From: an uncultured Opitutales bacterium
GTDB lineage: Bacteria; Verrucomicrobiota; Verrucomicrobiia; Opitutales; Intestinicryptomonadaceae
Reading direction: 5' to 3'
NCBI GenBank assembly: GCA_934613415.1
Contig: CAKTSY010000004.1
Span: 252,681 to 284,680 of the forward strand
Length of the DNA: 32,000 nucleotides
Shown here: piece after piece, positions 4,007 to 30,734 of the stretch
Layout of the letters: the number at the start of each line of letters is the position of its first letter
Position numbering within the stretch: position 1 is the first letter of the stretch
The notes under the pieces: generated by a model
What the model saw: only the letters and a program-made list of their open reading frames with translations
Databases searched by the model: none
Told to the model about the DNA's origin: nothing
Program-made: the position numbers and the translations under genes

Positions 4007-4070
4007 ATAGTATAACCTTTAATTTAATTCATCGAGCAGAAATGTATTGTCGATTGGGTGAAATTGCAAC

Positions 4071-4103
4071 AAAAAAAGGGCTCGTTTACACGAGTCCTTT
4101 TTT
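4071..4103 (-). terminator. Rho-independent terminator downstream of tRNA-Thr
   Basis: Stem gggctcg (4078-4084) and cgagtcc (4091-4097), 6-nt loop. An A-run precedes it and a T-run follows on the plus strand, so a U-tract follows the hairpin on either strand. Confidence 0.6.
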
Positions 4104-11459: not shown

Positions 11460-13592
11460 TTAGTAGACAAAAAGCATTTCGCAATACTTGGGCAAGGGCC
11501 ACAATTCGTTGTCGACTTCGCCTTCAAGCGTATCGGCAATTTTGCGGACTTCGGCCATTGCATCGAGCAGCTTTACGGGAGCTTCGCCCTTCTTTATAAG
11601 GGCTTCAAGCTTGTCGGCAGCCAAAACCAAAGCGTTAAGCCTTGTATCGATTTTTGCAGCCAGTGCCTTTACAGCCGAATTCTTTGTGCCCAAAATCTTT
11701 TCGGCTTCAAGCGACTTGCCAAGCTTTTCTATGTAGGCAACCACTGCGGGGATTATGTGCGTGCGCGAAATCTTCAAGGTCAACCCGGCTTCTATTCCTA
11801 CTTTGCGGGTATATTCTTCCAAGAATACTTCGTAGCGCGACTTTAATTCTACCGCATTGAAAACTCCGTACTTTTCGAAAAGCGCAACGTTCTTGGGGTC
11901 TACCAAGGGCTTGATTGCCTCGGGGGTTGTGCGCAAATTTGGCAACTTGCGCTTTGCGGCCTCCTTCTTCCAAGCGTCGCCGTAACCGTCGCCGTTGAAG
12001 ATAATCTTCTTGTGCTTTTTGATTATGGCCGAAAGAATCTTTTGCAATTCATCGTGGAAGTTTGCGCTTTTTGGCAGATTCTCGAGCATTGTTGCAATTT
12101 CGTCGAAAGCTTCGGCAACCGCGGTATTCAAAACAATGTTCGGGCTTGCGCAGCTTTGCGAAGAGCCAGCGGCTCTAAACTCGAACTTGTTGCCCGTAAA
12201 TGCAAATGGGCTTGTTCTGTTTCTGTCGGTTGCATCGCATGGCAATACGGGCAAAATGTCGGCACCGATTTTCAAAATCTTACCGTGCTTGCTCGACTTT
12301 GCGCCGCCATTTTCTATCTGCTCTACAATGTCGGCGAGCTGTTCGCCCAAGTACATCGAAATGATTGCCGGCGGAGCTTCGTTTGCGCCCAAACGGTGGT
12401 CGTTGCCCGCCCCCGCAATTGCCGAGCGCAACAAGTCGGCGTGTCTGTCTACAGCTTCTATTACCGCGCAAAGGCTTGTAAGGAATATTGCGTTTTGGTG
12501 GGGGTCGTCGCCGGGGTTAAGCAAATTGATGTCGCCAACCGAAATAGACCAGTTGTTGTGCTTGCCCGAACCGTTTACGCCATCGAAGGGCTTTTCGTGA
12601 AGCAGGCATGCAAAACCGTGTTTGTCGCCTATTCTCTTTAGCGCGTCCATAATAAGCATATTGTGGTCTACCGCCAAGTTAAGCTCTTCAAACATCGGGG
12701 CAATTTCGAACTGCGCGGGGGCAACTTCGTTGTGCCTTGTTTTTGCGGGTATGCCAAGCCTCCACAATTCGTGGTCAAGCTCGCTCATAAACGACAAAAT
12801 TCTGGGTTTAATTGCGCCGAAGTAGTGGTCTTCCAATTGTTGGTGCCTTTGCGGAGGCGCGCCAAACAATGTTCTGCCGGTTTGCATTAGGTCGGGGCGT
12901 TGAACATAAAAACGCTTGTCGATTAAAAAGTATTCTTGCTCCGCACCCAAGGTTACCTTTGCGTTGGCTTCAAAATTCTTGCCAAAGCACTTTAGCAGGC
13001 GCTTTGCCTGTGCGCCCAAAACCTGCATAGAGCGCAACAAAGGAGTTTTCTTGTCGAGAACTTCGCCCGTGTACGAGCAGAAAGCCGTGGGAATGTACAA
13101 GGTTGCAACACCGTATTCGCGCTTAATAAAGGCGGGGCTTGTCGGGTCCCAAGCGGTGTAGCCGCGGGCTTCCGCCGTAGAGCGCAAACCGCCCGAGGGG
13201 AAACTGGAAGCGTCGGGTTCGCCCATTATAAGGTTTTTGCCCGAAAATCTTGCAATGACTTCGCCGCCGCCGACAGGTTCAAGGAAAGAGTCGTGCTTTT
13301 CGGCACTGGAGCCAGTAAGGGGCATAAACCAGTGAGTGTAATGGGTAGCCCCCCTCTTAATCGCCCAGCTTTTCATTGCGTGGGCAACATCGTCGGCAAT
13401 CGAAGAATCTATTGCCTTGCCAGTGTTCATAGTTTCCAACAGCTTCTTGAAAACGGGCTTGGGGAGATATTCCGACATTGCCTTAATGTTGAATACGTCG
13501 CAGCCGTAGTCTTCTATGAAGTTGTCTGCCGCCGCCGTTTCGGGAACGGCGGTGTCGGCAATATTTGCCAGTGCTATTTTTCTGCTATTCAT
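11460..13592 (-). CDS. glnN: Glutamine synthetase type III
   Basis: 710 aa, the size class of GSIII. Contains the NGSGKHNNWS block and an N-terminal region (THYTHWFMPLTGSSAEKHDSF) characteristic of type III enzymes. ATG confirmed at 13590-13592, preceded by a GAAAGGA Shine-Dalgarno-like element. Confidence 0.95.
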   Translation of the reverse strand: MNSRKIALANIADTAVPETAAADNFIEDYGCDVFNIKAMSEYLPKPVFKKLLETMNTGKAIDSSIADDVAHAMKSWAIKRGATHYTHWFMPLTGSSAEKHDSFLEPVGGGEVIARFSGKNLIMGEPDASSFPSGGLRSTAEARGYTAWDPTSPAFIKREYGVATLYIPTAFCSYTGEVLDKKTPLLRSMQVLGAQAKRLLKCFGKNFEANAKVTLGAEQEYFLIDKRFYVQRPDLMQTGRTLFGAPPQRHQQLEDHYFGAIKPRILSFMSELDHELWRLGIPAKTRHNEVAPAQFEIAPMFEELNLAVDHNMLIMDALKRIGDKHGFACLLHEKPFDGVNGSGKHNNWSISVGDINLLNPGDDPHQNAIFLTSLCAVIEAVDRHADLLRSAIAGAGNDHRLGANEAPPAIISMYLGEQLADIVEQIENGGAKSSKHGKILKIGADILPVLPCDATDRNRTSPFAFTGNKFEFRAAGSSQSCASPNIVLNTAVAEAFDEIATMLENLPKSANFHDELQKILSAIIKKHKKIIFNGDGYGDAWKKEAAKRKLPNLRTTPEAIKPLVDPKNVALFEKYGVFNAVELKSRYEVFLEEYTRKVGIEAGLTLKISRTHIIPAVVAYIEKLGKSLEAEKILGTKNSAVKALAAKIDTRLNALVLAADKLEALIKKGEAPVKLLDAMAEVRKIADTLEGEVDNELWPLPKYCEMLFVY

Positions 13593-13625: not shown

Positions 13626-14957
13626 CTATTCGTTAGAGAAGATTTGGAATCCGTTATAGGCCTCCATCGCGTGTTCCGAAATATCCAAGCCCTTCAATTC
13701 GTCGCTCCTGCTTACCCTTATGCCCATTGTCTTCTTTATTGTGTAGAAGATTGCAAAGCTTATCGAAATGCTTGCCGCAGCCACTGCAACTATGCCTATT
13801 ATTTGCGGGAGAAGTTCGTGGTCGGGCGAGAATAGTCCAACCGCCAAGGTTCCCCAGATGCCGCATACCAAGTGTACCGAAAGCGCGCCAACAGGGTCGT
13901 CGATTTGCAGCTTGTCGAAGGCGTATACCGCAATTACAACTATCACACCCGAGATTGCACCTATTAGGCACGAAGCTTGAATCGATACGCAGTCTGCAGC
14001 AGCCGTTATACCCACCAAGCCTGCCAAGCAACCGTTAAGAACCATAGACAAGTCGGGCTTGCCTTGCGCTACCCACGAAGTGAACATTGCAGCCATTAAA
14101 CCAGCCGCGGCCGATAAAGCCGTTGTTGTGAATACGTAAGCTACCATTACGGGGTCGGCACTGAATACCGAAGCACCATTAAAGCCGAACCAACCGAACC
14201 ACAGTAGGAATACACCCAATGTTGCAAAGCCCAAGTTGCTGCCGGGAATTGCGTGGGCAGTCTTGCCAACGTACTTGCCGATTCTTGGCCCTACCAATAT
14301 TGCGCCTACTAAGGCTGCCCAACCGCCAACGCTGTGTACGAATGTAGAACCCGCCAAGTCGTAGAAGCCGAGCTTTGCCAACCAGCCGCCGCCCCAGCCC
14401 CACGAGCCGATAAGCGTGTAACCGAACGCCGCATAGAGTATTGCAAATATTATATATGCGCTAAACTTTATTCTTTCGGCAACCGCACCCGAAACAATAG
14501 TTACGGAAGTCGCCGCAAACATACCTTGGAATATAAAGTCCGTCCAGTAGCCATAGTTGCCGCCATTATAGGCAATCCCGCCCAGCGCGCCTTCGGGCGA
14601 AGAAACGCCAAAGCCCATAAAGCCCAACACACCGTTTATAAGCCAAGAATCTTTCGGATACATAATGCTAAAACCGATTACCACATAGGTAAGCAAACCG
14701 ATTGCCACCGTGATAACGTTTTTAGAAAGAATGTTCACGCTGTTCTTTGCGCGGCACAAACCAGTTTCTACCAGTGCAAACCCGGGGTGCATTGCAAAAA
14801 CCAAAATTGCACCCAAAAGTATCCACAAGTTGTTAATTGTAAACATTTCGTTCGAAACTGCGGGCGTTGCAGCCTCGGCGTTTGCCGCCACCTCTTGCCC
14901 AAATGCCGAACACGCGCCCATCAGCGCGCCTATATATAACAATGTCTTTAGTCTCAT
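13626..14957 (-). CDS. amtB: Ammonium transporter (Amt family)
   Basis: 443 aa with a signal peptide and about 11 TM segments. Conserved DLAGSTFVHSVGGWAALVGAILVGPRIGKY block. Lies 22 nt downstream of glnK, the classic glnK-amtB pairing. Confidence 0.95.
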   Translation of the reverse strand: MRLKTLLYIGALMGACSAFGQEVAANAEAATPAVSNEMFTINNLWILLGAILVFAMHPGFALVETGLCRAKNSVNILSKNVITVAIGLLTYVVIGFSIMYPKDSWLINGVLGFMGFGVSSPEGALGGIAYNGGNYGYWTDFIFQGMFAATSVTIVSGAVAERIKFSAYIIFAILYAAFGYTLIGSWGWGGGWLAKLGFYDLAGSTFVHSVGGWAALVGAILVGPRIGKYVGKTAHAIPGSNLGFATLGVFLLWFGWFGFNGASVFSADPVMVAYVFTTTALSAAAGLMAAMFTSWVAQGKPDLSMVLNGCLAGLVGITAAADCVSIQASCLIGAISGVIVVIAVYAFDKLQIDDPVGALSVHLVCGIWGTLAVGLFSPDHELLPQIIGIVAVAAASISISFAIFYTIKKTMGIRVSRSDELKGLDISEHAMEAYNGFQIFSNE

Positions 14958-14979: not shown

Positions 14980-15321
14980 TTAGCCTATTGCCTCGCGACC
15001 TGTTTCGCGCGTTCTCACGCGAATACATTCCTCGACGTTCAATACAAAAATTTTGCCGTCGCCGATGTGGTCGGTTTGGGCACCTTTTATAATAGACTCT
15101 ATTGTCTGGTCGAGATACTCGTCGTTAACAGCGATTTCCAAGCGTACTTTTTTAAGGAGGTTTACCTCTCTAACATTTCCGCGATAGTTTTCGCTATAAC
15201 CCTTCTGCCTTCCGCAGCCGAGTGCGTTAGTAACCGATAGCCTGTATATTTCGTTCTTGAAGAGTTCCTTTTTTACCTCTCCAAGTTGTTCGGGCTTAAT
15301 GTATGCTATTATTAGTTTCAT
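14980..15321 (-). CDS. glnK: P-II nitrogen regulatory protein
   Basis: ORF 14980-15414, trimmed to the ATG at 15321 (MKLIIAYIKPEQLGEVKKEL...). 113 aa. T-loop GRQKGYSENYRGN retains the Tyr. The untrimmed extension would run through the sigma-54 promoter. Confidence 0.9.
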   Translation of the reverse strand: MKLIIAYIKPEQLGEVKKELFKNEIYRLSVTNALGCGRQKGYSENYRGNVREVNLLKKVRLEIAVNDEYLDQTIESIIKGAQTDHIGDGKIFVLNVEECIRVRTRETGREAIG

Positions 15322-15352: not shown

Positions 15353-15369
15353 AGCATAAAGCGTGCCAG
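15353..15369 (-). promoter_or_regulatory. Sigma-54 (-24/-12) promoter of glnK-amtB-glnN
   Basis: Minus strand reads CTGGCACGCTTTATGCTT. GG and GC have the canonical TGGCAC-N5-TTGC spacing (ATGC in place of TTGC). About 33 nt upstream of the glnK ATG. Confidence 0.75.
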
Positions 15370-15431
15370 TTTTTTTACACATTTTTGCAAAAATGCGGCA
15401 AAAACCACAAACACCGCATAAACACTAAGTT

Positions 15432-15557
15432 CTACAAGAATGTAGGCACCTGCAAAATTGGCGCATACAAAAAAGTAGCCCTTTATACCCCATTTTTTAG
15501 CCCTTCTGCGCTACAAATTTGTTGCAACTACATTTTTGTGCTACTACAAATTTGTAG
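15432..15557. promoter_or_regulatory. Array of CTACA-N4-TGTAG palindromic sites (candidate enhancer/UAS for the sigma-54 activator)
   Basis: Five sites. 15432-15445 CTACA-AGAA-TGTAG. 15465-15478 ATACA-AAAA-AGTAG. 15511-15524 CTACA-AATT-TGTTG. 15528-15541 CTACA-TTTT-TGTGC. 15544-15557 CTACA-AATT-TGTAG, which is the core of the perfect 16-bp palindrome ACTACAAATTTGTAGT at 15543-15558. The array lies 70-190 bp upstream of the -24 element. Confidence 0.55.
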
Positions 15558-15573
15558 TTCAGCAAAATATACA

Positions 15574-15603
15574 ACAAAAAAGGCGGTGCATTTAAGCACC
15601 GCC
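15574..15603 (-). terminator. Rho-independent terminator after dapF-like gene
   Basis: Stem ggcggtgc (15582-15589) and gcaccgcc (15596-15603), 6-nt loop. On the minus strand it is followed by TTTTTTGTTG. Confidence 0.7.
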
Positions 15604-15627
15604 CGACAACAATCCAATTTACACAAA

Positions 15628-16488
15628 TTACATATTAGGAATGTCTTGCGTTAAAACGCTATCGAACATTTCGTATACTCCCACTTTTGTAGCGGGCCCG
15701 CTCATAGTTATAGAATAGTCGGGTTTTATTGAAATTTTCAAAATTCCGCCGGGCATATGAACAGTTATGTCGCCTTCGCATAAGCCAAGTTTGTAGGCAA
15801 CGCTTGCCGCCGCGCTAGAACTTGAGCCCGAAGCCAACGTATAGCCTGCGCCCCTCTCCCAAATTTGGATGTTAATGTTGTTTTTGTCTACAACCTCTAA
15901 AAACTGCACATTTGTTCTATTGGGAAATTTCTCCGTCATATTCTCCAAAACGGGGCCAATTTTGTGCGCAATTTCCGACGAAACCTTTTTCATAGGCACA
16001 ACGCAGTGGGGGTTGCCAACGGTTGCGCAGCAATATTTATAGGCTACGCCGTCTATTACAACCTCTTGGTTTATAACTTCGTCCTTTACGCCGTTTACGG
16101 GAATTTTGTCGGCGTCGAAGCTTACGCGCCCCATTTCAACAGTAATATAATTTCCGTTTTGTGAAACCGTGCACGAAACTACGCCACCTAAAGTATCTAC
16201 CGTAAAGGGCTTGTTTTCTTCAACGCGCCCAGTGTCGAACAAATAGCGCGAAAATATCCTAAGGCCGTTGCCGCTTTTTTCGGCTTCGCTGGCATCGGGG
16301 TTTAATATGCGCAGTTTAAAGTCGGCTTTGTCGCTCTTTTCGGGGCCGAACAAAATTCCGTCGCTTCCCAAGCCGAAATTTCTGTGGCAAATTTTAACAA
16401 CGTCCAAGCCCTGCGGGCAAACGGGGCAATCTTTGGGGTCTAAAACCAGATAGTCGTTGCCCAATGCGTGGTATTTATAAAACTTCAT
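15628..16488 (-). CDS. Diaminopimelate epimerase homolog (DapF fold) lacking both catalytic cysteines
   Basis: ORF 15628-16566, trimmed to the ATG at 16488 (MKFYKYHALGNDYLVLD). It aligns by eye along the whole length with E. coli DapF (GNDF, NADGSE, GNPHCV, ERGAGET). The C73 position reads KSGNG and the C217 position reads LASGSS. Confidence 0.75.
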   Translation of the reverse strand: MKFYKYHALGNDYLVLDPKDCPVCPQGLDVVKICHRNFGLGSDGILFGPEKSDKADFKLRILNPDASEAEKSGNGLRIFSRYLFDTGRVEENKPFTVDTLGGVVSCTVSQNGNYITVEMGRVSFDADKIPVNGVKDEVINQEVVIDGVAYKYCCATVGNPHCVVPMKKVSSEIAHKIGPVLENMTEKFPNRTNVQFLEVVDKNNINIQIWERGAGYTLASGSSSSAAASVAYKLGLCEGDITVHMPGGILKISIKPDYSITMSGPATKVGVYEMFDSVLTQDIPNM

Positions 16489-16501
16489 TTTTGTATCCTT
16501 A

Positions 16502-17740
16502 TTAAAATTCGAATTTCGACTGCGACATTCTCTTTTTGATTTCGGCAACAACCGCCTTTTCGGCATCTATGCCGTGCGCTTCAAAAGTTACCGAAAACCT
16601 TACATACGGGCCTTCGTCGTCCCACGGAACCGTGCTTATTAGATGTTGCGAAATCATCCACTGCGAAAAATCTTCGCCCGACTTAAACTCGGTTTTGCTT
16701 CCGTCTTCGTTCAAAGCGGCTTTTGGAGCTTTCATATAAAGGAAGAACCCTGCTTTCGGCTTTTTGGGGCTAAAGCCCAAGTCTTTTAACACGCCCACAA
16801 GCAAATCCATACGTCTGGAATATTTTGCGGCAATTTGCCTTGTAATAAGCGGGTTTTCTAGCCCCTTTGCCCCAGCAAGCTGTATGCCCAAAAATTGTCC
16901 GGAATCGCAGTTGTCTTTAACGTCGCCGTAGGCTTTTACAAGCAGGGGATTTCCGCAAACCCAGCCAATTCGCCAGCCGGTCATATTGTGGCTTTTCGAC
17001 ATCGAGTGCAGTTCAAGAGCCACGTCTTTGGCACCTTGAACCTGAAATATAGAAAGCGAAGGTCCTTCAAATGTCAAAGACGCGTACGCTGCATCGGAGA
17101 TTATTATTATGGAGTTTTCCTTTGCAAACTTTACAAGCTTTTCGAAAAACTCAAGCGTTGCACTTGCACCCGTTGGGTTGTTAGGATAGTTTACAACCAT
17201 AACTTTTGCCCTTTTCCTTATGTCTTGGGGAATGGAATCTAAATCGGGCAAAAAGTTGTTTTCTTCGGAAAGCTTTACGTTGTATACTTCGCCGCCCAAA
17301 TATTTTGCGTGCGTACCAAAAACGGGGTAGCCTGGTATTGTCATTATAACAACGTCTTTGGGGTTTATAAAGCAATAGGGCAAAATGCTCAGGGCCGCTT
17401 TAGAGCCTATAGAGTGTATAATTTCGGTGTCGGGATCTAGCTGTACGCCGAAAACCGCCTTCATATATGAAGCGGCCGCCACTTTAAAATCTCTGCCGCC
17501 GTTGTCGGCATAGCCGCGGTTTGCGGGGTTTTTTGCCGCAGCATACAAAGCCTCTACAACTTCGGGGAAAGCCATTTCGTCGGGCTCGCCAACGCCCATA
17601 TCTATAAGCTCAACATCGGGCTTGGCGGCTTTTGCCGCGCGCTTTGCCCTCTTGATTTTTTCGAACTTGTAAATTTCGTTCGTTTTGCCGTAGTTTACTC
17701 CGCCAATTCTTTCGGCGAACATATTCTGAAGGAATGTCAT
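16502..17740 (-). CDS. Class I/II PLP-dependent aminotransferase (candidate LL-diaminopimelate aminotransferase by context)
   Basis: 412 aa. PLP-lysine block HSMSKSHNMTGWRIGW. VVNYPNNPTG block typical of fold-type I aminotransferases. Ends 13 nt upstream of the DapF homolog start. Substrate assignment rests on context only. Confidence 0.6.
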   Translation of the reverse strand: MTFLQNMFAERIGGVNYGKTNEIYKFEKIKRAKRAAKAAKPDVELIDMGVGEPDEMAFPEVVEALYAAAKNPANRGYADNGGRDFKVAAASYMKAVFGVQLDPDTEIIHSIGSKAALSILPYCFINPKDVVIMTIPGYPVFGTHAKYLGGEVYNVKLSEENNFLPDLDSIPQDIRKRAKVMVVNYPNNPTGASATLEFFEKLVKFAKENSIIIISDAAYASLTFEGPSLSIFQVQGAKDVALELHSMSKSHNMTGWRIGWVCGNPLLVKAYGDVKDNCDSGQFLGIQLAGAKGLENPLITRQIAAKYSRRMDLLVGVLKDLGFSPKKPKAGFFLYMKAPKAALNEDGSKTEFKSGEDFSQWMISQHLISTVPWDDEGPYVRFSVTFEAHGIDAEKAVVAEIKKRMSQSKFEF

Positions 17741-17762: not shown

Positions 17763-19310
17763 TTATTTGTATAAAAGCGGGTCTATATTAAGCTTTTTAA
17801 TTTTATATAGTATAATGCGCGGCGTAGTTTTTAGATATTTTGCCGCAGCGCTTGCATTGCCGTTATTTTTCTTTAGCGCGTTTATTATTATCTCGCGCTC
17901 GAAATTGCCTACAAGCGTTTCGTAGTCGGTATTTTCGGGCTCTGCTCCGTCGCCTGCAAAGGCGGGAACCGACGCCGTCGACAAATCGGTTTGCAAAGTC
18001 GGCGGCAGGTTGTAGCCACTTATAACGTTGTCGGAAGTATTTAAAACCGCATATTCCATACAGTTTTCAAGCTCTCTTACGTTGCCCGGCCAATAATACG
18101 AAGTCAGCATATTTATTGCCGTTGTTGAAATTCGCGAAACGCTTTTGTTGTGTATTAAATTGTATTTTTCCAAAAAGTGCTCCGCCAAAGATGTAATGTC
18201 GCACTTGCGGTTTCTTAGCGCAGGCAAATATATGGGAAATACGTTTAGGCGGTAGTACAAGTCTTCCCTGAAAGTTCCAGCCTTAATCATTTCCTCTAAA
18301 TTGCGGCTTGTTGCCGCCAATATGCGAACGTCTACCCTACGCTCTTGGCTAGAACCTACCCTAAAGAAAGTGTGCTCTTGAATGAAGCGCAAAAGTTTTA
18401 ACTGCATAAACAAGGTCAAATCGCCCACTTCGTCCAAAAACAAAGTTCCCGTATCTGCAACTTCAACCAAGCCCGCCTTGCGGTTTACAGCCCCCGTAAA
18501 CGAGCCCTTTTCGTGCCCGAACAATTCGCTTTCTATAAGGCCCTCGGGCAAAGCCGCACAGTTTATAGAAACAAAGGGTTTGTCTTTCCTAAGCGAATTT
18601 TTTTGGATTGCTCGGGCTACAAGCTCTTTGCCCGTTCCCGATTCGCCCCTAATTAAAACCGTTGCATTCGAAGACGCCACTTTGAAAATCATCGAATACA
18701 CCTTTTTCATATTCGCGCAATTTCCCACAATTTCGGTTGGGCGCAATTTGTTTTCCAACTCCAAATGCAAACGCTTGTTTTCGCTTATCAACTTTTCGCG
18801 CTCTTCAACCTCGGCGTAGGCTGCATATACGGCGTCGGCCATAATATTGGCTATAATTTCAAGCAAGCGCAAATCGGCGTCTAAATCGGTATTTTCGTCG
18901 GTTTTGCGGTCTATGCTTATGGTGCCAATTACGTCGTCCATATAAATAATGGGAACGCAAATAAAGGCTACGTTCGTTTCGCCCGAGCGCGCGCCCGTGC
19001 GGTTTAAAAAGCCCTTTTCTTTAGAAACATCGGCAATAACGCGGGATTTGCCCTCTAGAGCAACCATACCCGTAATGCCCTCGCCTATGCGGTAGGTACC
19101 GCGCTCGGCCTCGCGCTTGCTAAGCCCTTGCGAAGCTTCTATTACAAGCATATCGCCCTCGCGAAGGGCCACGGTGCCCCTAAGCAAACCCATTTCGGTA
19201 TGCAATGTATCCAAAATCTGCGAAATCATCTCCTGCACCGACGACCTCTTTGCCACAAGGTGGCTGATTTTCTTTAATACTTCAATGCTAACGTGTTGGT
19301 GGTTGTCCAT
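17763..19310 (-). CDS. Sigma-54-dependent transcriptional activator, GAF-AAA+-HTH (NifA-like one-component bEBP)
   Basis: The ORF runs to 19334 with a GTG start; the first ATG is at 19310 (MDNHQHVSIEVL...). N-terminal GAF-like domain. Walker A GESGTGKELVARAIQ. GSFTGA sigma-54 contact loop. Walker B TLFLDEVGDL. C-terminal Fis-type HTH (NASAAAKYLKTTPRIILYKIKKLNI). No receiver domain. Confidence 0.9.
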   Translation of the reverse strand: MDNHQHVSIEVLKKISHLVAKRSSVQEMISQILDTLHTEMGLLRGTVALREGDMLVIEASQGLSKREAERGTYRIGEGITGMVALEGKSRVIADVSKEKGFLNRTGARSGETNVAFICVPIIYMDDVIGTISIDRKTDENTDLDADLRLLEIIANIMADAVYAAYAEVEEREKLISENKRLHLELENKLRPTEIVGNCANMKKVYSMIFKVASSNATVLIRGESGTGKELVARAIQKNSLRKDKPFVSINCAALPEGLIESELFGHEKGSFTGAVNRKAGLVEVADTGTLFLDEVGDLTLFMQLKLLRFIQEHTFFRVGSSQERRVDVRILAATSRNLEEMIKAGTFREDLYYRLNVFPIYLPALRNRKCDITSLAEHFLEKYNLIHNKSVSRISTTAINMLTSYYWPGNVRELENCMEYAVLNTSDNVISGYNLPPTLQTDLSTASVPAFAGDGAEPENTDYETLVGNFEREIIINALKKNNGNASAAAKYLKTTPRIILYKIKKLNIDPLLYK

Positions 19311-19409
19311 AAGCTTATGTTTGTTTTGCGGCACAATGCAGGCCGAACCCGAAAACTTTATTATGTGTTTTTTAGCTCTTTTTACATTGTGCCCGTTTGA
19401 TTTTTCGCT

Positions 19410-22400
19410 CTAAGAATTTGCGTGCTTTGCCAAGGCCGCCCTGTAGTCTATCGGGAACACCTTTACAAACTTCGGCAAAAATTCGCTCCAGTTGTTTAAA
19501 ATGTTTTCGGCAACATAGCTGTTTGTGGCTTTGCAATAGTCTTGAATAATGCCCCTTAGCTCGGCGTCCGATTCCGAATTTTCAGCAATGCTTTCTAAGT
19601 CTACGCTTTCAAGGTTGCACCTTCTGTCGAACTGGCCGTCGGCGTCGAGCACATAGGCAAAGCCGCCCGTCATACCAGCCGCAAAGTTAAAGCCTGTAGA
19701 GCCTAAAACAACAACGCGCCCACCCGTCATATATTCGCAACAGTGGTCGCCCGCGCCTTCGGTTACAATAACGGCTCCGCTGTTTCTAATTGCAAGCCTT
19801 TCGCCCGCAAGGCCGTTTATGTAAATCTTGCCGTTTGTAGCACCATAGCCTATTACGTTGCCGGCAATAACGTTTTTCGAAGCGTTTTCCCTTTCGGCAT
19901 CATACGCCTTAATAAAGATATTGCCGCCCGAAAGGCTCTTGCCTATATAGTCGTTGGCTTCGCCGGTAAGGCTAAAGTTTATGCCGTGGCAGAGGAACGC
20001 GCCAAAGCTTTGCCCTGCGCAACCGGTAAAGTTTGCGTTTATGGCGTTTTCGGGCAAGTTGGCGTCGCCCCACTTTTTAGCTACAACGCCTGCAAGCATT
20101 GCGCCAACACTTCTGTCGAAGTTGTGTATTTCAAAGCTTTCGGTATGCGAAATACCCTTTTCTACGCTTTCGGCAAAGGCCTTAAGCAGCTTTTTGTCGT
20201 AGGCGTCTTTTAGCTCTCTTTCGGCAAGCCCCAAAGACCTTCTTGGCGAATTTTCGTCGGCAATTTGCGCAAACATCTTCGAAAAGTCCAAATTCTTCGA
20301 CTTCCAAAAATCCAATGCGCCATCTTTGTCGAGCAGGTCGCTGCGGCCTACGGCCTCGTCTATGGACCTTAGCCCCAACGACGCCAAAATTTCCCTTGTT
20401 TCTTCGGCTACAAAGCGTAGATAATTTTCGATATGCTCGGGCTTGCCGGCAAACTTTTTGCGCAATTGCTCGTCTTGCGTTGCAACGCCAACCGGGCAGC
20501 AGTTTTTGTGGCAAACACGCCTCATTACGCAGCCTATGGCAACCAAAATTGAGGTTGCAAAACCGAATTCTTCGGCGCCTAACAACGCGCCTATTACAAC
20601 GTCGCGACCAGTCTTTATCTGACCGTCTACCTGAACGCGAATCTTGTCGCGCAGACCGTTTAGGCGCAAAGTTTGCTGAGTTTCGGCCAAGCCTATTTCC
20701 CACGGGGCTCCAGCATACTTAATGCTTGTTAACGGCGACGCCCCCGTGCCGCCGTCGTGGCCGCTAATTAGAACCATATCGGCCTTTGCCTTTGCAACGC
20801 CCGCTGCAACCGTGCCTACGCCCGCCTCGGAAACCAGCTTTACCGAAACTCTCGCATTTTCGTTCGAATTGCGCAGGTCGTATATAAGCTGGGCAAGGTC
20901 TTCTATAGAATAAATGTCGTGATGCGGCGGCGGCGATATCAAGGTTACCCCCGGAATTGAGTGCCTGATTTTTGCTATTATGGAATTTACCTTATAGCCC
21001 GGCAACTGGCCGCCTTCGCCCGGCTTTGCGCCCTGGGCAACCTTAATTTGCAGCTCTTTTGCGTTTGCCAAATAGGCTGCCGTTACGCCAAACCTGCCGC
21101 TTGCAATCTGCTTTATTGCGCTAGAGCTTTCGGTGTTAAAACGGCTTTCGTCTTCGCCGCCTTCGCCACAGTTGCTCATTGCGCCAAGCCTGTTCATTGC
21201 AACGGCTATTGTCTGGTGCGCTTCGGGCGAAAGTGCGCCAAAGCTCATTGCGCCGCTTACAAAACGCTTTACAATGCCTTCGGTGCTTTCAACTTCGCTT
21301 AGCGGCAATGGATTTGCCACGGCCTTAAACTTGAACAAGCCCCTTAAAGTGCAAAGCCTGCGCGCTTGATTATTTACAAAATCGGCAAACTGGCGGTAAA
21401 GCTTTTCGTCGTTATTCCTTACCGACCTTTGCAAAAGCGATATGCTTGCTGGTGTCCACAAATGGTTTTCGCCGTCTTTTGCGTACTTATATTTGCCTGC
21501 GTTTTCCAGCACGTTTTCTTCGCCGAACTTCGGGTAGTGCGTGTTGCGGTATCTTTCCAAAATTTCGGCAGCAACTTCATTTATGCCAATGCCGCCTATT
21601 CTAGACGATGTGCCCGAAAAATACGCGTCCACAAATTCCTGCGAAAGGCCTATTGCTTCAAAAATCTGGGCTTGGCGGTAGCTTCGCAATGTGGAAATGC
21701 CCATTTTCGACATTATCTTTAAAAGCCCCTTCTTTATGGCGGTTATATAGTTTTCGGCAGCTCTTGCAGCGTCGATATTGTCTATCTGTCCGTCCTTTAC
21801 CATTTCGGCAACAGTTTCTATTGCCAAGTATGGGTTTATTGCCGTAGCACCATAGCCAAGCAAAAGCGCAAAGTGCATAATTTCGCGCGATTCGCCAGTT
21901 TCGGCCACAATGCCCGCGGCATAGCGCAAGCTGCACTTTACAAGCCTTGTGTTTACGGCCGCCACAGCCAAAAGCATTGGTATGGGCGCATATCCGTAAT
22001 CCAAATTCTTGTCGCTTAAAATTATAACCGTTTTAGAATCTCTTACGGCATTTTCGGCATCGTCGCAAATTTTTTCCATCGCGCGCTTTAGGGCTTCTAC
22101 GCCGCCTTGGGCCGAGAACTGCGCCTTAATTGTTGCCGACTGGAACGTTGGCAACTTGGAAGAGCGCATGCAGGAAATGTCGTGGTTGGTTAAAATCGGG
22201 CACGGCAGCTTTAACAAGTGCGCCAATGAAGGCGACTCTATAAGCGAGTTTCCACAGTTGCCTATGTAGGTTGTCAAACTCATTACCAGCGATTCCCTAA
22301 TCGGGTCTATCGGTGGGTTTGTTACCTGGGCAAACAGCTGCTTAAAATAGTCGTACAAAAGCTGCGGCTTTTCGGAAAGCACAGGCAAAGCGGCATCGTT

Positions 22401-23876
22401 GCCCATCGAGCCTATAGGCTCTTTTGCGTCTACGGCCATGGGCTTTAAAATCAATTCCAAATCTTCTTTTGTGTAGCCAAAAAGCTTTTGCCTTTGAATA
22501 AGGTTTTCGCCTATAGACGGAGCTTCGGAATTTTCGAATATGCCGGGCAGCTCTATTCTATTTTCCTGAACCCAGCGGCGATAGGGCTTTGCTCGGGCAA
22601 GCACCGTTTTAATTTCGGTATCGTGCATTACCCTGCCTTTTTCGGCGTCTATATAAACCATTTCGCCGGGGCGCAAACGTCCCTTTAAGGCAATGTCGGT
22701 TTCGGATAAATCCAAAACGCCAGTTTCGCTTGCCAAAACAAACAAGCCGCTCTTGGTTATCGTATAGCGAGCAGGTCTTAAGCCGTTTCGGTCTAACAGC
22801 GCACCCGACTGCGTACCGTTTGTAAATACCAAGGCAGCCGGGCCGTCCCACGGTTCGCTTACGCCCGAGTGATATTCAAAAAAGCCCTGAATATCTTTGC
22901 TGATATGGAAAGACTTGCCCCACGCCTGTGGAACTAGCATAAGCATTGTATGCGGCAGCTTGCGCCCCGCCTGACAATAAAATTCAACCGCGTTGTCCAA
23001 GCAGGCCGAGTCGCTCTGGTTGGGGCTAATTACGGGCAAAAGCTTCTTTATATTGTCGCCAAAAAGCGGTGTAGAAAAATGCTCTTGGCGCATATTCATT
23101 TGGTTGATATTGCCGCGTAAAGTGTTTATTTCGCCGTTGTGCGCCAAATATCTAAAAGGCTGTGCCAAAGGCCACGTCGGGAAAGTGTTTGTAGAATACC
23201 TTTGGTGTATTAGCGAAATTGCGCTTACATAAGTTTCGTCGCTTAAGTCGGGGTAAAACTGCTTTAGCTGGGGAGCGTTTAAAAGCCCCTTGTAAACAAC
23301 AGTTTTTGCCGAAAGCGAGCAAATGTAAAAACCGTCTATATTTTCGGCGGCAATCTTGTTTTCGATTACCCTGCGCAAAATATATAGGCTGCGTTCCATA
23401 TCTTCGGCGTTTAAGCCGCTCTTTGCTATAAACAACTGCTCAATATTCGGACAGCTGTTAAGGGCTATGCCGCTTATTGCGGATTTGTCTACCGGAACCG
23501 TTCTTTCGGCTACAAACGAAAATCCCTCGCCAGCCAGACAACTTTTAAAAATTTCCACACACTTTTTTGCCAAAGATTCGTCTTGCGGCAAAAATAGCAT
23601 TGCAACCGCATATTCGCCAAGCTTTGGCAACTTTTCGCCAAGCTCTTTTCTAAAAAACGCATCGGGAATTTGGGTAAGAATGCCCGCGCCGTCGCCCGTG
23701 TGCGAGTCGCCGCCAACTGCACCCCTGTGGAGCAGTCTTTCCAAAACTTTAATGCCGTCCAAAACAATTTGGTGACTTGCGCGTCCCTTAATATCGCTAA
23801 TAAGGCCAACACCACAAGCGTCGTGTTCGTTTTGCGGGCTATACATTCCCTGTTCTTTTGGATAATACATCTGCAT
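19410..23876 (-). CDS. gltB: Glutamate synthase large subunit
   Basis: ORF 19410-23948. Ntn-amidotransferase N-terminus ...NEHDACGVGLISD, an FMN/Fe-S central domain, and a C-terminal GXGXG beta-helix domain (GNVIGYGATNGKIYINGLAGERLAIRNSGA). Start trimmed to the ATG at 23876 because the longer ORF would include the sigma-54 promoter. Alternative ATGs at 23870 and 23846. Confidence 0.93.
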   Translation of the reverse strand: MQMYYPKEQGMYSPQNEHDACGVGLISDIKGRASHQIVLDGIKVLERLLHRGAVGGDSHTGDGAGILTQIPDAFFRKELGEKLPKLGEYAVAMLFLPQDESLAKKCVEIFKSCLAGEGFSFVAERTVPVDKSAISGIALNSCPNIEQLFIAKSGLNAEDMERSLYILRRVIENKIAAENIDGFYICSLSAKTVVYKGLLNAPQLKQFYPDLSDETYVSAISLIHQRYSTNTFPTWPLAQPFRYLAHNGEINTLRGNINQMNMRQEHFSTPLFGDNIKKLLPVISPNQSDSACLDNAVEFYCQAGRKLPHTMLMLVPQAWGKSFHISKDIQGFFEYHSGVSEPWDGPAALVFTNGTQSGALLDRNGLRPARYTITKSGLFVLASETGVLDLSETDIALKGRLRPGEMVYIDAEKGRVMHDTEIKTVLARAKPYRRWVQENRIELPGIFENSEAPSIGENLIQRQKLFGYTKEDLELILKPMAVDAKEPIGSMGNDAALPVLSEKPQLLYDYFKQLFAQVTNPPIDPIRESLVMSLTTYIGNCGNSLIESPSLAHLLKLPCPILTNHDISCMRSSKLPTFQSATIKAQFSAQGGVEALKRAMEKICDDAENAVRDSKTVIILSDKNLDYGYAPIPMLLAVAAVNTRLVKCSLRYAAGIVAETGESREIMHFALLLGYGATAINPYLAIETVAEMVKDGQIDNIDAARAAENYITAIKKGLLKIMSKMGISTLRSYRQAQIFEAIGLSQEFVDAYFSGTSSRIGGIGINEVAAEILERYRNTHYPKFGEENVLENAGKYKYAKDGENHLWTPASISLLQRSVRNNDEKLYRQFADFVNNQARRLCTLRGLFKFKAVANPLPLSEVESTEGIVKRFVSGAMSFGALSPEAHQTIAVAMNRLGAMSNCGEGGEDESRFNTESSSAIKQIASGRFGVTAAYLANAKELQIKVAQGAKPGEGGQLPGYKVNSIIAKIRHSIPGVTLISPPPHHDIYSIEDLAQLIYDLRNSNENARVSVKLVSEAGVGTVAAGVAKAKADMVLISGHDGGTGASPLTSIKYAGAPWEIGLAETQQTLRLNGLRDKIRVQVDGQIKTGRDVVIGALLGAEEFGFATSILVAIGCVMRRVCHKNCCPVGVATQDEQLRKKFAGKPEHIENYLRFVAEETREILASLGLRSIDEAVGRSDLLDKDGALDFWKSKNLDFSKMFAQIADENSPRRSLGLAERELKDAYDKKLLKAFAESVEKGISHTESFEIHNFDRSVGAMLAGVVAKKWGDANLPENAINANFTGCAGQSFGAFLCHGINFSLTGEANDYIGKSLSGGNIFIKAYDAERENASKNVIAGNVIGYGATNGKIYINGLAGERLAIRNSGAVIVTEGAGDHCCEYMTGGRVVVLGSTGFNFAAGMTGGFAYVLDADGQFDRRCNLESVDLESIAENSESDAELRGIIQDYCKATNSYVAENILNNWSEFLPKFVKVFPIDYRAALAKHANS

Positions 23877-23904: not shown

Positions 23905-23921
23905 AGCAAATTGCGTGCCAG
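23905..23921 (-). promoter_or_regulatory. Sigma-54 (-24/-12) promoter of gltB operon
   Basis: Minus strand reads CTGGCACGCAATTTGCTA, a perfect TGGCAC-N5-TTGC. About 30 nt upstream of the ATG at 23876. Confidence 0.8.
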
Positions 23922-23993: not shown

Positions 23994-24170
23994 CAACTTT
24001 TTTGTAGGCATTCCCGACAAATTTGCAAACTACAAATTTGTCGCAAACAAATTTGTTTAAACTACATTTTTGTTGCAAGAAAATTCTTAATTTTGCTACA
24101 AAAAAGTTTTTGAGGGCTGTTTTTTTCGATTTTTATGCAACTTGCCCAGGCTTTGCACACAAAAAAGTAG
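23994..24170. promoter_or_regulatory. Array of CTACA-N4-TGTAG-type sites upstream of gltB (candidate UAS)
   Basis: Seven sites. 23994-24007 CAACT-TTTT-TGTAG (half site). 24015-24028 CGACA-AATT-TGCAA. 24030-24043 CTACA-AATT-TGTCG. 24045-24058 AAACA-AATT-TGTTT. 24062-24075 CTACA-TTTT-TGTTG. 24096-24109 CTACA-AAAA-AGTTT. 24157-24170 ACACA-AAAA-AGTAG. The central four are phased at 15-17 bp. Confidence 0.55.
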
Positions 24171-25813: not shown

Positions 25814-25828
25814 AATCAACATATTTGT

Positions 25829-25845
25829 AGCAAAAGGCGTGCCAC
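25829..25845 (-). promoter_or_regulatory. Sigma-54 (-24/-12) promoter of nadE
   Basis: Minus strand reads GTGGCACGCCTTTTGCTA, a perfect TGGCAC-N5-TTGC. The -12 GC lies only about 17 nt upstream of the ATG at 25813. Confidence 0.65.
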
Positions 25846-25942: not shown

Positions 25943-25986
25943 AACAAAAACAAAAAATGGGTAAACTACAAAATTGTCGTTTACCC
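25943..25986 (-). terminator. Rho-independent terminator after GT4 gene
   Basis: Stem gggtaaac (25959-25966) and gtttaccc (25979-25986), 12-nt loop. On the minus strand it is followed by ATTTTTTGTTTTTGTT. Confidence 0.65.
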
Positions 25987-27440: not shown

Positions 27441-27526
27441 TGGTGCTCGAGGGGGGACTTGAACCCCCACGCACGAGGTGCATATGAACCTGAATCATAC
27501 GTGTCTGCCAATTTCACCACTCGAGC
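27441..27526 (-). tRNA. tRNA-Leu (anticodon CAG), class II with long variable arm, CCA encoded
   Basis: The reverse complement is GCTCGAG-TG-GTGAAATTGGCAGACAC-G-TATGA-TTCAGGT-TCATA-(TGCACCTCGTGCGT)-GGGGG-TTCAAGT-CCCCC-CTCGAGC-A-CCA. Acceptor and T stems are perfect. 86 nt. Confidence 0.9.
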
Positions 27527-27643: not shown

Positions 27644-28027
27644 TTACTTTGCAGCAAGTTGCTTGCCAATTGCCGCTTTTACATTGTTTATGTACCTTAT
27701 CGGCACAATTGCCTTGCCGGATATATTCGAGCCTTTCGAATTTACGTTTATCTGGTTTTCGGCAAACGTTATGTAAAGCCTTGCCGACATTCCCCTGTGG
27801 TCTAGGCTTGCGCTAACGACGTCGCCCAAATCTTTAACCTGCCACTTTTTCATTACAAGGGCGTTAATAGTTGCCTTGCGCAATTCGGCTTTGCTGCCTA
27901 CATAGTAAAAACTTGTGTCGTATTGTTGCGCCTTTGCCATTTCGTAGCCCTTATCTGTTGTAGGCGTTGTGCACGAAACGCAAGTTAGCGAAATAATTGC
28001 AAATAAAACTAATAATAACTTTTTCAT
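27644..28027 (-). CDS. Small lipoprotein of unknown function
   Basis: 127 aa. Leader MKKLLLVLFAIISLTCVSC has a lipobox-like Cys. I recognise no other motif. Confidence 0.6.
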   Translation of the reverse strand: MKKLLLVLFAIISLTCVSCTTPTTDKGYEMAKAQQYDTSFYYVGSKAELRKATINALVMKKWQVKDLGDVVSASLDHRGMSARLYITFAENQINVNSKGSNISGKAIVPIRYINNVKAAIGKQLAAK

Positions 28028-28267
28028 ATATTTTTGTTAAATTTCAAAAAACGCTACAAATTTCTTGCCGAAAATTCAACGTTAAAAATCGGCACCAATC
28101 AAAATAGAATATAAAGAATTCACCCTAAGAGCTTTTTATTAAAAAATTGGCAATTTTTAAAACTTTATGCACTTTGCCTACAACCTTTCAAATGCCATAA
28201 AATATGGCAGCTTGCCCATAAAACTAAAATTTGCTTTAACCCCTTTCCCCTACCTATAAATAGCAAA

Positions 28268-28324: not shown

Positions 28325-30058
28325 CTATCTTCTTTTGCGGTATACTGCCAACCCCAACGCCAATGCGCCAAAGATTGCCGCAACGGTTGCAGGTTCGGGA
28401 ACCTGCGTTGCCAAAATTGTGAACTTGTTTTCGTTTATCTCGCAACTCCAATAACCGTTAAAGGTTTTGCCCTTAATTGTTAGATATAGGCTTTCGTCGG
28501 GCTTTAGGTCTTTTAGACTTGCTATGTTCGAATCGCTTTCAAACGAAATTAAATCGAACCTATATTCAACATTATCTAAAAGGTCTTCGGTTATGTTCAC
28601 GGTAAGTTTGCCGTCTATAACCAAGCCTGCCAAAGACTCTATGTAAATTTGTGTAGGGTCGCTTAAGGAAGTATCTATTACAAGAACACCATTTTCGGCT
28701 ATAGTAAGCGTCTTTTTGTTTACTACGTCTAACCTTGCCCCTGTGTCTAACTTAAGGGTTGCCCCACCAGAAACAGTTGCGTCGCTTTCCGAAACTTTAG
28801 CACTAATCATTTCCCCACCGCTTGTAGCAGGTATATATTTGCGAATGGTAAAATTGTCACTAGCAGATTCCATCGAAAAGTTTTTTATAATGCCGTCGGT
28901 CCAGATCACATTTTGCATTTTGGAAACTAGCGGAATATCACTGACATGCCCTGAAGTACCAGAAGACTTGATTGTTGCACCACGCAACTCAATACTAATC
29001 AATGTTGAGTTAGACCAGCATGCATCAGTAAGATTAGAATTAGAAAAATTAACCCTTGTCAAAACCGATGAGGCAATGTAGAAATTCGCCCCCGTAAGAT
29101 CCAGACCAGATAAGTCGAAATCTGCCAAATCACCGAACCTAATATTGGTAATATCTGATGCGGAACGTAATTGTATGTCAGTTAAATTTTTTATACGATA
29201 GAGATCCGCACCAGATAAATTAGCATTGGCAAAGTTTGTATTTTTCACATTTGCAGCAAGAAATTTTGAATTCGAAAGATTCGCGCTTGTAAAATTGGCT
29301 CCCTGCAGATTTGCATTTGTAAAATAAATCTGTGAAACATCTGCATTTGTAAAATTGGCATTCAAAAGGCTTGTGTTATAAAACAAGGATGACCTAAGAT
29401 TAGCATTGCTAAAATCAGTTTTTATTAGTCTGCCACTACTAAATATAGACATACAAAGGTTTAATCCAGATAAATCAAAACCATTAAGATTCAAATTTCC
29501 AAAATCCATCTTAGAAATATTAGAAGCCGAACGTAATTGCCTGTCAGTTAAATTCACAATTCCATTAAGGTTTATGCCCGAAAGATTGGTATTTGTAAAA
29601 TCGACATTTTGAACATTGGTAAAGCTTAAATCAGAATCCGAAAGGTTTAATCCAGATAGATTGAAATTACTTATATTTACGGCATTTAGATTAATTTTAG
29701 TTATATCAACAGCGGAACGTAGTTGTGTGTCAGTTAAATTTTTTACATATTTAAAATTTACACCCGAAAGATTCGCATTGGTAAAATTTGCATTTTCTAG
29801 GTTTGCTCCAGAAAAACTTGCATCGGAAAGATCCGCATTTGAAAAGTTGGAATCAGTGTAAATCGATGACGCTCCAGATACCCAACCATTTGAAAATATA
29901 GTCCCAATAGCCGAAACACCTACCCAACTTGAATTTTTATAGGAACTCCCAGAAAAATCTTCGCCGCTTACATCTTGTCCGTCAAAAACTTCGTTATCGG
30001 CAAAAGCGATAGTTGCTCCAAAAAGGAATATCGTAAATAGTTTTATATTGTTTTTCAT
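28325..30058 (-). CDS. Secreted pentapeptide-repeat protein with C-terminal PEP-CTERM sorting signal
   Basis: ORF 28325-30244, trimmed to the ATG at 30058 (MKNNIKLFTIFLFGATIAFA-DN signal). Long runs of A(D/N)LxX pentapeptides (NFSNADLSDASFSGANLENANFTNANLSGVNF...). The C-terminus VPEPATVAAIFGALALGLAVYRKRR combines a PEP motif, a TM helix and a basic tail. Confidence 0.85.
   Translation of the reverse strand: MKNNIKLFTIFLFGATIAFADNEVFDGQDVSGEDFSGSSYKNSSWVGVSAIGTIFSNGWVSGASSIYTDSNFSNADLSDASFSGANLENANFTNANLSGVNFKYVKNLTDTQLRSAVDITKINLNAVNISNFNLSGLNLSDSDLSFTNVQNVDFTNTNLSGINLNGIVNLTDRQLRSASNISKMDFGNLNLNGFDLSGLNLCMSIFSSGRLIKTDFSNANLRSSLFYNTSLLNANFTNADVSQIYFTNANLQGANFTSANLSNSKFLAANVKNTNFANANLSGADLYRIKNLTDIQLRSASDITNIRFGDLADFDLSGLDLTGANFYIASSVLTRVNFSNSNLTDACWSNSTLISIELRGATIKSSGTSGHVSDIPLVSKMQNVIWTDGIIKNFSMESASDNFTIRKYIPATSGGEMISAKVSESDATVSGGATLKLDTGARLDVVNKKTLTIAENGVLVIDTSLSDPTQIYIESLAGLVIDGKLTVNITEDLLDNVEYRFDLISFESDSNIASLKDLKPDESLYLTIKGKTFNGYWSCEINENKFTILATQVPEPATVAAIFGALALGLAVYRKRR
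29100..29760. repeat. Three diverged intragenic repeat modules inside the pentapeptide gene
   Basis: DNA blocks around 29101-29200, 29459-29560 and 29643-29745 share cores such as ccagataaRtcRaaa and cggaacgtaRttgt-tgtcagttaaatt. They encode the repeated peptide NLTD(T/R/I)QLRSA(V/S)(D/N)I(T/S). Confidence 0.6.
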
Positions 30059-30063
30059 AGCTG

Positions 30064-30522
30064 TTATTTTGTTAAAAATGATACAATCAAGTCGCAGATA
30101 TTTGACTCCATTACGGTTCTTTCGTCGTTGTTTTTGCAGGGGAAAGTACTTAAATTGAATTTTACCTTGAACCCATGTTGCGGTAGTGAATTGAAAATAT
30201 ATTCTCTTACAGAGCCTGCTGTGTCTACTGAGCGCGAAACGCACACCAGAACGTCTATCCTGTCTTTTATTATTCCAAATACGCGTTCAAACTCCTCTTT
30301 GAAATCTCCGTTGCTGGCTAATCCGACACGCTTGCCACCGATGGACAAAAAGACAGCAAAAAAGTCATGCCCATACGATAAATCGGGGATTTGGCAACTT
30401 GATACCTCATTCCCGTTAAATGTATGTTCTGATTGAAGCGAACATAACTGCATATAAATCATTCGCAAAGTCGAAGATTTTCCCGAATTTGCGCATCCAG
30501 AAACTAAAATAACATCTTTCAT
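30064..30522 (-). CDS. Small P-loop NTPase-like protein, unknown function
   Basis: 152 aa. N-terminal Walker A MKDVILVSGCANSGKSSTL. Possible Walker B RIDVLVCV. Its stop lies 5 nt before the start of the pentapeptide-repeat gene. No signal peptide. Confidence 0.6.
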   Translation of the reverse strand: MKDVILVSGCANSGKSSTLRMIYMQLCSLQSEHTFNGNEVSSCQIPDLSYGHDFFAVFLSIGGKRVGLASNGDFKEEFERVFGIIKDRIDVLVCVSRSVDTAGSVREYIFNSLPQHGFKVKFNLSTFPCKNNDERTVMESNICDLIVSFLTK

Positions 30523-30716: not shown

Positions 30717-30734
30717 TCGTATTTATAATACGAT
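30717..30734. promoter_or_regulatory. Palindromic operator-like element, copy 2 (TCGTATT-N3-AATACGA)
   Basis: TCGTATTTATAATACGAT. Contains TATAAT (30724-30729) and abuts or overlaps the integrase ATG at 30733. Confidence 0.5.

Follow-up and report, generated by a model that had tools for sequence, protein, structure and literature searches.

Sigma-54 promoters do not fire without an activator that engages sigma-54 through its AAA+ domain. At enteric glnAp2, NtrC occupies paired dyads about three helical turns apart, 100 to 140 bp upstream of the sigma-54 promoter, and it serves ammonium assimilation genes. Here, we analyzed a 32,000-nucleotide stretch of DNA from an uncultured Opitutales bacterium (contig CAKTSY010000004.1; hereafter, the window), in which a cluster of CTACA-N4-TGTAG palindromes lies upstream of glnK, at 15432-15558. 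Very probably, this cluster acts as the enhancer (upstream activator sequence) for the sigma-54 promoter that serves glnK-amtB-glnN and is a binding target for the GAF-AAA+-HTH_8 activator encoded at 17763-19334. The assignment to that activator is well supported because of the comparative evidence set out below.

Nlh1 and Nlh2 are GAF-type sigma-54 activators of Aquifex aeolicus, a non-diazotroph. Nitrogen assimilation is the presumed target of Nlh1, in which a dimer of GAF domains represses the ATPase until a ligand is bound (PMC9866876). For the Desulfovibrionales, Kazakov et al. (2015, BMC Genomics 16:919, PMC4641369) proposed on computational grounds that the one-component activator DVU1949 controls a nitrogen regulon, with amtB-PII-glnD (DVU1231-1233), a type III glutamine synthetase (DVU1258), glnA (DVU3392), and glutamate synthase (DVU1823-1821) as its targets. 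As judged by sequence comparison, the window element is of the same family as that of this predicted regulon, and its regulator probably is as well. A preliminary description of the palindromes had suggested an undescribed cis-element, and this suggestion has to be given up: a near-identical motif was predicted for DVU1949, with the same core, pairing, and regulon, so the motif family is already described, although computationally only and in one paper of the literature that we searched (PMC4641369). In the literature on Verrucomicrobia, or on NifA-like activators, and nitrogen assimilation, we found no description of the element in Opitutales.

The palindrome array and its conservation

All of the relevant genes, from glnN to nadE, lie on the minus strand. 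Read in that direction, the glnK intergenic region leads from the terminator of dapF (15604-15581) through the palindromes to a -24/-12 promoter of the GG...GC type (TGGCACGCTTTATGCT, 15368-15353), which lies 32 bp before the glnK ATG, on the strand of the gene that it would serve, and has equivalents in orthologous loci. The five 14-bp sites that had been placed 70 to 190 bp upstream of the -24 element are all present, and their centers lie 72, 105, 151, 168, and 184 bp from the -24 GG, so that the dyad sites fall within the range of approximately 70 to 200 bp expected of an enhancer, where two or more are usual. Three are strong 16-bp palindromes, and two are weaker. Site A (ACTACAAATTTGTAGT, 15543-15558; center at 184 bp) is a perfect 16-bp palindrome in which the CTACA-N4-TGTAG copy at 15544-15557, with its perfect arms, is nested; it scores 25.6 against a position matrix that was built from other species only, with the window left out. 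Site B (ACTACATTTTTGTGCT, 15527-15542; center at 168 bp; score, 16.2) abuts both of its neighbors and contains the copy at 15528-15541, which has two mismatches, while site C (GCTACAAATTTGTTGC, 15510-15525; center at 151 bp; score, 21.9) contains the copy at 15511-15524, with one mismatch, and lies 33 bp from site A. The consensus of the element is aCtACAAwTTTGTaGt.

The two remaining sites call for separate treatment. Site D (ATACAAAAAAGTAG, 15465-15478; center at 105 bp) has two mismatches, its matrix score falls under those of the matches listed, and by itself it is not above chance. Site E (CTACAAGAATGTAG, 15432-15445; center at 72 bp) is above chance because its ten arm bases are perfect, as had been noted at the outset; its low score (8.2) arises because the spacer, which contains a G, is not made up of A and T. 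The matrix was seeded with ACA-N4-TGT, however, so that mismatches in the core are penalized too heavily and both sites are undervalued; we therefore judged them by their arm matches and by conserved distance. The distance of site D (105 bp) is that of the conserved proximal position in relatives (105 to 107 bp), and that of site E is close to the 71 bp that is rigidly conserved in 13 or more amtB promoters of another lineage. Site E is probably a genuine site, and site D is possibly one.

The starts of the three distal sites are indeed 17 and 16 bp apart, as first described. This phasing as such, however, does not appear from the comparison to be the functionally conserved spacing. Strong sites are instead kept approximately 32 bp apart (in the window, 33 bp, from 15510 to 15543). 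Abutting pairs 17 to 18 bp apart are present in another lineage, where such pairs at 171 and 188 bp are conserved, in support of site B.

Within the window, there are 27 matches to CTACA-N4-TGTAG with up to two mismatches, against 7.2 expected; none of 100 shuffles reached 27, and the matches are clustered in three places. The core ACA-N4-TGT occurs four times in the 259-bp region upstream of glnK (expected, 0.07). The motif recurs, as had been claimed, upstream of gltB (starts at 24030, 24062, and 23994), and it is found upstream of nadE as well (25966). The seven highest window matches of the other-species matrix all lie upstream of the glnK, gltB, and nadE sigma-54 promoters. In the remaining intergenic DNA of the window (2,865 bp, 58 to 78% AT), there was no site with one mismatch or fewer, compared to six in the three target regions. 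Given this absence and the excess over expectation, we consider it ruled out that the motif is equally frequent in unrelated AT-rich DNA.

Conservation in gut Opitutales points the same way. The palindrome is kept upstream of the gltB, glnN, and glnK sigma-54 promoters in approximately 15 species whose activators are 69 to 80% identical to that of the window, so the phylogenetic footprint sought upstream of orthologous glnK and gltB genes does exist. Gene order differs in these species: glnN is divergent from gltB, with the activator gene downstream of the latter, and the two divergent promoters, both of the sigma-54 type, enclose two and sometimes three ACTACAAAATTGTAGT-like palindromes. In ten species, the gltB -24 GG is separated from the sites by 106 and 138 bp. 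Spacing from center to center is 30 to 32 bp in the relatives, or 42 to 43 bp at two glnK promoters, and across 53 canonical promoters the sites cluster 60 to 200 bp upstream. Every gut Opitutales locus combines the sites with a linked activator gene. Sixteen copies of the word ACTACAAA fall within 5.1 kb of the relatives' regulatory regions and none within the other 223 kb; it ranks first in an unbiased 8-mer count, followed by other parts of the palindrome and by promoter words, and that count brought out no further conserved candidate motif there besides the sigma-54 promoter words. Across all loci, nearly every matrix match that scores at least 14 falls within the regulatory regions, and locus L011, which was outside the matrix set, showed the same pattern. 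The locus of a Lentisphaeria homologue (L021; 44% identity) contained no match of 14 or more, and the motif may differ in that lineage.

Within the gut Opitutales, the third residue of the recognition helix varies together with the half-site. Where it is Ser (TTSR; L011 and L019), 8 of 12 half-sites read CGACA; where it is Gln ([AT]TQR; among L007 to L020), CTACA accounts for 27 of 52 and CGACA for 4. This is a weak hint that the position may be a specificity-determining residue, in that the covariation stems from very few independent lineages and maybe from one or two evolutionary events. As a separate observation, a half-site is fused to the -24 element directly ahead of the gltB promoter in six relatives, with the form [CG][TG]ACAAAATTGGCAC (L007, 3980-4000; L010, 3950-3970; L014, 3962-3981; L015, 2710-2730; L017, 3979-3998; and L018, 3948-3968). 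It is missing from the glnN promoters of those regions and from the window's own promoters.

To look beyond the clade, we scanned public metagenome contigs with a two-site DNA pattern, CTACAAWWTTGTAG-N(2-32)-ACAAWWTTGT, which makes no use of protein information. At least 120 loci were recovered, from sediments, soils, wetlands, and guts. Among the matches listed, many of which are short, AmtB or another protein of the system is encoded in 70 of 120 loci (AmtB, GlnK, GlnN, GltB, NadE, or a homologue of the activator), the individual counts being 52 for amtB, 47 for glnK, 23 for the activator homologue, 9 each for gltB and glnN, and 3 for nadE. The 23 activator homologues among these matches are 41 to 54% identical to the window protein and mostly full length, although some are cut at contig ends or comprise only the AAA+/HTH part. 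Often, the activator gene adjoins the sites directly; in L043, L046, L136, and L140, for example, a few dozen bases separate its end from them.

One environmental lineage carries a variant -12 element, with promoters of the form TGGCAYG-N4-T[AG]G[AT]T and sites 71, 171 to 173, and 188 to 190 bp upstream of amtB. These positions (71/171/188) may be set against the 72, 168, and 184 bp (together with 151 and 105 bp) of the window glnK sites. The -24 element of these promoters is canonical (TGGCAYG), and the -12 region reads T[AG]G[AT]TATA in place of TTGCW (e.g., L040, 3242-3262 and 6364-6384); 26 promoters of this type were listed. Neighboring genes in L075 (TusA/DsrE and an Fe-S oxidoreductase) suggest that this lineage is a sulfur-metabolizing anaerobe. 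Also found in the metagenomes, at L064 (8222-8431), L075 (4142-4318), and approximately 25 other loci, is a stand-alone HTH_8 (Fis-type) protein of 58 to 69 residues that carries the activators' recognition helix, LGITERMIGYKVKKY. Two abutting palindromes, at 53 and 71 bp from a promoter, immediately precede its gene, which is followed by a porin-like gene, amtB, and glnK. Such a protein, made of the DNA-binding domain alone, could act as a competitor at the enhancer.

The neighboring activator and competing explanations

The proposed binder is encoded at 17763-19334 on the minus strand, 75 bp downstream of gltB and on the same strand. It is a NifA-like one-component activator in which Pfam identifies a GAF domain, a sigma-54-interacting AAA+ domain (Sigma54_activat; E value, 1e-70), and an HTH_8 domain, without a receiver domain. 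It scores 460 bits against the NCBIfam NifA model (TIGR01817), under the cutoff of 529; the best solved structure is that of NifA (9qq6; E value, 4e-103), and the best solved match to its GAF domain is that of Nlh1 (4g3k; E value, 1e-16). The gene is 99% identical to a copy in the metagenome-assembled genome CAKUIA010000001, and orthologues with 69 to 80% identity occur in Intestinicryptomonas porci, 'Coraliomargarita sp. CAG:312', Candidatus Merdousia, and metagenome-assembled genomes of other Opitutales. Activators at loci with the motif share a recognition helix of the form T-x-R-x-x-[GL]-Y-[KR]-[IV]-[KR]. That this protein is by far the best candidate binder of the palindromes is well supported by the sequence comparison, because its linkage to the sites is kept across gut Opitutales and across environmental lineages that were found by DNA pattern alone (protein identity, 42 to 54%). 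The earlier suggestion that it is the probable binder is thereby borne out as a prediction. Likewise supported is the view of the array as a sigma-54 enhancer, given the promoter, the distances, and the conservation described above and a candidate cognate activator that has both sigma-54-interacting and DNA-binding domains.

How might such an enhancer work? A dimer of the activator would bind each 16-bp palindrome through its C-terminal Fis-type helix-turn-helix. Under nitrogen limitation, which (by analogy with NifA) might be signaled by 2-oxoglutarate or by the PII protein GlnK, the N-terminal GAF domain would let go of the ATPase, and the bound dimers would form an active ring; the three abutting sites could supply a hexamer. 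The ring would then loop to the closed sigma-54 holoenzyme at the -24/-12 element and open the complex with ATP. The same sites would presumably drive gltB and nadE, and the gltB operon probably holds the activator gene, which would create a positive feedback. Positive autoregulation is likely because the activator gene follows gltB by 75 bp without an evident hairpin or T-run and because it is co-oriented downstream of gltB in the relatives.

Several points weigh against this assignment. The window DNA-binding domain scores best not against DVU1949 but against DVU0569 (BLOSUM, 36 listed Desulfovibrio vulgaris domains), a regulator of alanine dehydrogenase with a different motif, TGG-N12-CCA. 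An assignment of specificity from domain similarity is therefore ambiguous, and since it pointed to a protein whose motif differs, we dropped it as a predictor; Kazakov et al. likewise note that DNA-binding domain similarity and motif are not always in agreement (PMC4641369). The DVU1949 precedent is itself computational. Sites D and E depart from the conserved A/T center or from the TGT arm. Our search covered 32 kb of this genome, and another activator of the same specificity may be encoded elsewhere. Finally, given the stand-alone HTH_8 proteins with the same helix in one environmental lineage, proteins besides the full-length activator plausibly occupy such sites.

Some of these considerations bear on the alternative that survives best, although we regard it as unlikely: the palindromes could be a real nitrogen-control element with another binder encoded elsewhere, be it a second sigma-54 activator or a protein consisting only of a DNA-binding domain, which would leave other sites to the GAF activator. 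The failure of the domain comparison to single out DVU1949, the stand-alone proteins of some environmental lineages, and the extent of the search are all compatible with it. Against this, sites and activator gene occur together at all of the gut Opitutales loci and at 23 metagenomic loci among the matches listed, there is no second HTH_8 coding region in the relatives' 20-kb loci, and the regulatory regions yielded no other conserved motif, apart from sigma-54 promoter words.

It is still more improbable that the sites serve mainly as operators for repression or constitute a dual activator/repressor element. A motif copy at 25816-25831 (score, 18.8) does sit on the -12/+1 region of the nadE promoter, a similar copy is found in L005, and half-sites abut the gltB -24 element in six relatives. 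However, the strong glnK and gltB sites lie 105 to 190 bp upstream, clear of the promoter and within the classical enhancer range, and a promoter class that is silent without its activator has no need of a dedicated repressor. A chance or compositional artifact of AT-rich DNA, or an RNA or DNA hairpin unrelated to transcription factor binding, can be set aside almost entirely: the region is AT rich, and its tandem palindromes can pair with one another (fold z score, -3.7), but shuffles and the other AT-rich intergenic regions give essentially no sites, the fold is favorable because the palindromes are repeated, the conservation of ACA and TGT concerns their sequence and not their pairing and holds across phyla and at constant distances to the -24 element, and we reject a structured RNA in view of the position of the region downstream of a terminator and upstream of a promoter and the lack of an Rfam family match.

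Returning to the GAF activator as the binder, a broader possibility may be raised, albeit tentatively. NifA-like GAF activators that recognize tACA-W4-TGTa might be master regulators of ammonium assimilation that replace NtrBC in several anaerobe-rich phyla (Verrucomicrobiota/Opitutales, Desulfobacterota, and sediment lineages), with enhancers whose sites keep set distances from the promoter (106/138 bp for gut Opitutales; 71/171/188 bp for another lineage and, roughly, for the window). The DNA-binding-domain paralogue of 58 to 69 residues, placed under the same sites, might serve as a competing anti-activator in some lineages. Taken as a whole, we consider this scenario somewhat doubtful.

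Genes and promoters around the element

The operon behind the glnK promoter begins with glnK itself (14980-15321; Pfam P-II; E value, 2e-24), which encodes the PII protein, and continues with the ammonium transporter gene amtB (13626-14957; Pfam Ammonium_transp; E value, 1e-112) and, 33 bp further downstream, with glnN (11460-13592), which encodes a type III glutamine synthetase (Pfam GSIII_N and Gln-synt_C). The distal boundary of the enhancer is formed by the intrinsic terminator of the upstream gene dapF (15581-15604, minus strand).

The glutamate synthase large-subunit gene gltB (19410-23876, with its start at 23876; Pfam) is preceded by a perfect match to the sigma-54 promoter (TGGCACGCAATTTGCT, 23905-23920, minus strand) and by two enhancer sites 32 bp apart, namely, ACTACAAATTTGTCGC (24029-24044), 118 bp upstream of the -24 GG with a score of 25.1, and ACTACATTTTTGTTGC (24061-24076), 150 bp upstream with a score of 20.8. 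Likewise, nadE, which encodes a glutamine-dependent NAD+ synthase (24173 to approximately 25813), has a perfect promoter match (TGGCACGCCTTTTGCT, 25829-25844, minus strand), with the site ACTACAAAATTGTCGT (25965-25980) 130 bp upstream of the -24 GG; its score of 25.8 makes it the top match of the window. The copy that overlaps the -12/+1 region of this promoter reads GCTACAAATATGTTGA, and the leader of the promoter runs for a few bases before the likely start at 25813. In L005, the overlapping copy (GCTACAAAAAAGTAG, 4068-4085) is at the gltB promoter. Either autorepression or a chance resemblance to the TTGCT of the -12 element may account for such copies.

Two genes of the lysine pathway separate the activator gene from the glnK enhancer, namely, that for LL-diaminopimelate aminotransferase (dapL, 16502-17740) and dapF (15628-16566), the latter immediately upstream of the glnK intergenic region. 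The 75-bp gap between gltB and the activator gene contains no evident hairpin or T-run in the sequence as read (no scan was made), and gltB is probably cotranscribed with the activator gene, dapL, and dapF. The two dap genes, which are on the same strand and ahead of the only terminator, may thus be transcribed from the nitrogen-controlled gltB promoter. Among the fetched loci, dapL and dapF adjoin the activator gene only in the near-identical L001 and L028 (tblastn).

Further along the window, a moderate match to the motif (ACGCTACAAATTTCTTGCCG, 28051-28070; score, 12.9) is found just upstream of a small open reading frame with a signal peptide (27644-28027), which has no Pfam match; there is no sigma-54 promoter between the two. 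A tRNA gene (27444-27526) is followed first by the gene of a pentapeptide-repeat protein (28325-30244) and then by that of a phage-type integrase (30733-31878); these may mark the edge of an integrated element beside the nitrogen cluster.

Comparison with known systems

Like the NtrC enhancer of glnAp2, the element consists of paired dyad sites upstream of a sigma-54 promoter that governs ammonium assimilation. The NtrC site is unrelated in sequence and 17 bp long, however, and NtrC is controlled through a phosphorylated receiver domain, where the window regulator has a GAF domain. In the glnK region, the best match to the NtrC consensus (TGCACC-N5-GGTGCA) has 5 mismatches in 12 positions, and the column correlation does not exceed 0.35. 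With NifA, the window regulator shares similarity over the whole length, the GAF-AAA+-HTH architecture, and a 16-bp dyad site; it differs in its score, which is under the equivalog cutoff, and in its setting, there being no nif genes in the window. The NifA half-sites, moreover, are reversed in order and farther apart compared to ACA-N4-TGT: there is no TGT-N10-ACA in 15369-15627, and the column correlation is 0.01. The initial judgment that the motif fits neither NtrC nor NifA sites is thus upheld. Nlh1 of Aquifex aeolicus provides the closest solved GAF domain, although Nlh1 and Nlh2 come from a phylum distant from that of the window.

The closest counterpart remains DVU1949, and here the differences are best stated first. 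The outer two positions of its motif are TT/AA rather than AC/GT, the bacteria belong to Desulfobacterota rather than Verrucomicrobiota, and DVU1949 is in an operon with iorAB-type genes and not beside gltB. The comparison with DVU1949 covered its 42-amino-acid DNA-binding domain, over which identity was approximately 31% (hand alignment), with DVU0569 scoring higher. A link between the two may be provided by the metagenomic activator L075:684-2300, a GAF-AAA+-HTH_8 protein with palindromes in its locus, whose DVU1949-like domain (GWIQTKAARVLGLTPRQIGYKISKY) is approximately 56% identical to that of DVU1949 (hand alignment) and which is 44% identical to the window activator over the full length, GAF domain included. 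This lends indirect support to a possible orthology between the window regulator and DVU1949.

The likenesses are more extensive. From 92 of the sites in Additional file 4 of Kazakov et al. (PMC4641369), we derived TTtACAwwwwTGTaAA, which shares with aCtACAAwTTTGTaGt the 16-bp frame, the invariant C5 and G12, the ACA...TGT arms, and the A/T center, so that both conform to tACA-W4-TGTa; the mean column correlation of the two matrices reaches 0.61 when they are in register and does not exceed 0.22 when they are not. DVU1949 sites are often paired at 32 bp (e.g., Dde_2311, Dde_3492, DvMF_0866, DvMF_2528, and DvMF_3023) or at 41 to 42 bp (PMC4641369). Both regulators are one-component activators rather than response regulators, and in both cases the targets are ammonium assimilation genes behind sigma-54 promoters, namely, amtB-PII, type III glutamine synthetase, and glutamate synthase. 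For the largely uncultured gut Opitutales, the comparison offers a regulatory code for nitrogen assimilation, composed of motif, spacing, promoter, and regulator, together with a position matrix suited to annotating their nitrogen regulon; the strictness of the site geometry and the paralogues made of the DNA-binding domain alone are handles on how GAF-type activators assemble on DNA. The current understanding of sigma-54 control is not overturned by any of this. Rather, a regulon known from the 2015 Desulfovibrio prediction is extended to another phylum and to many environmental lineages.

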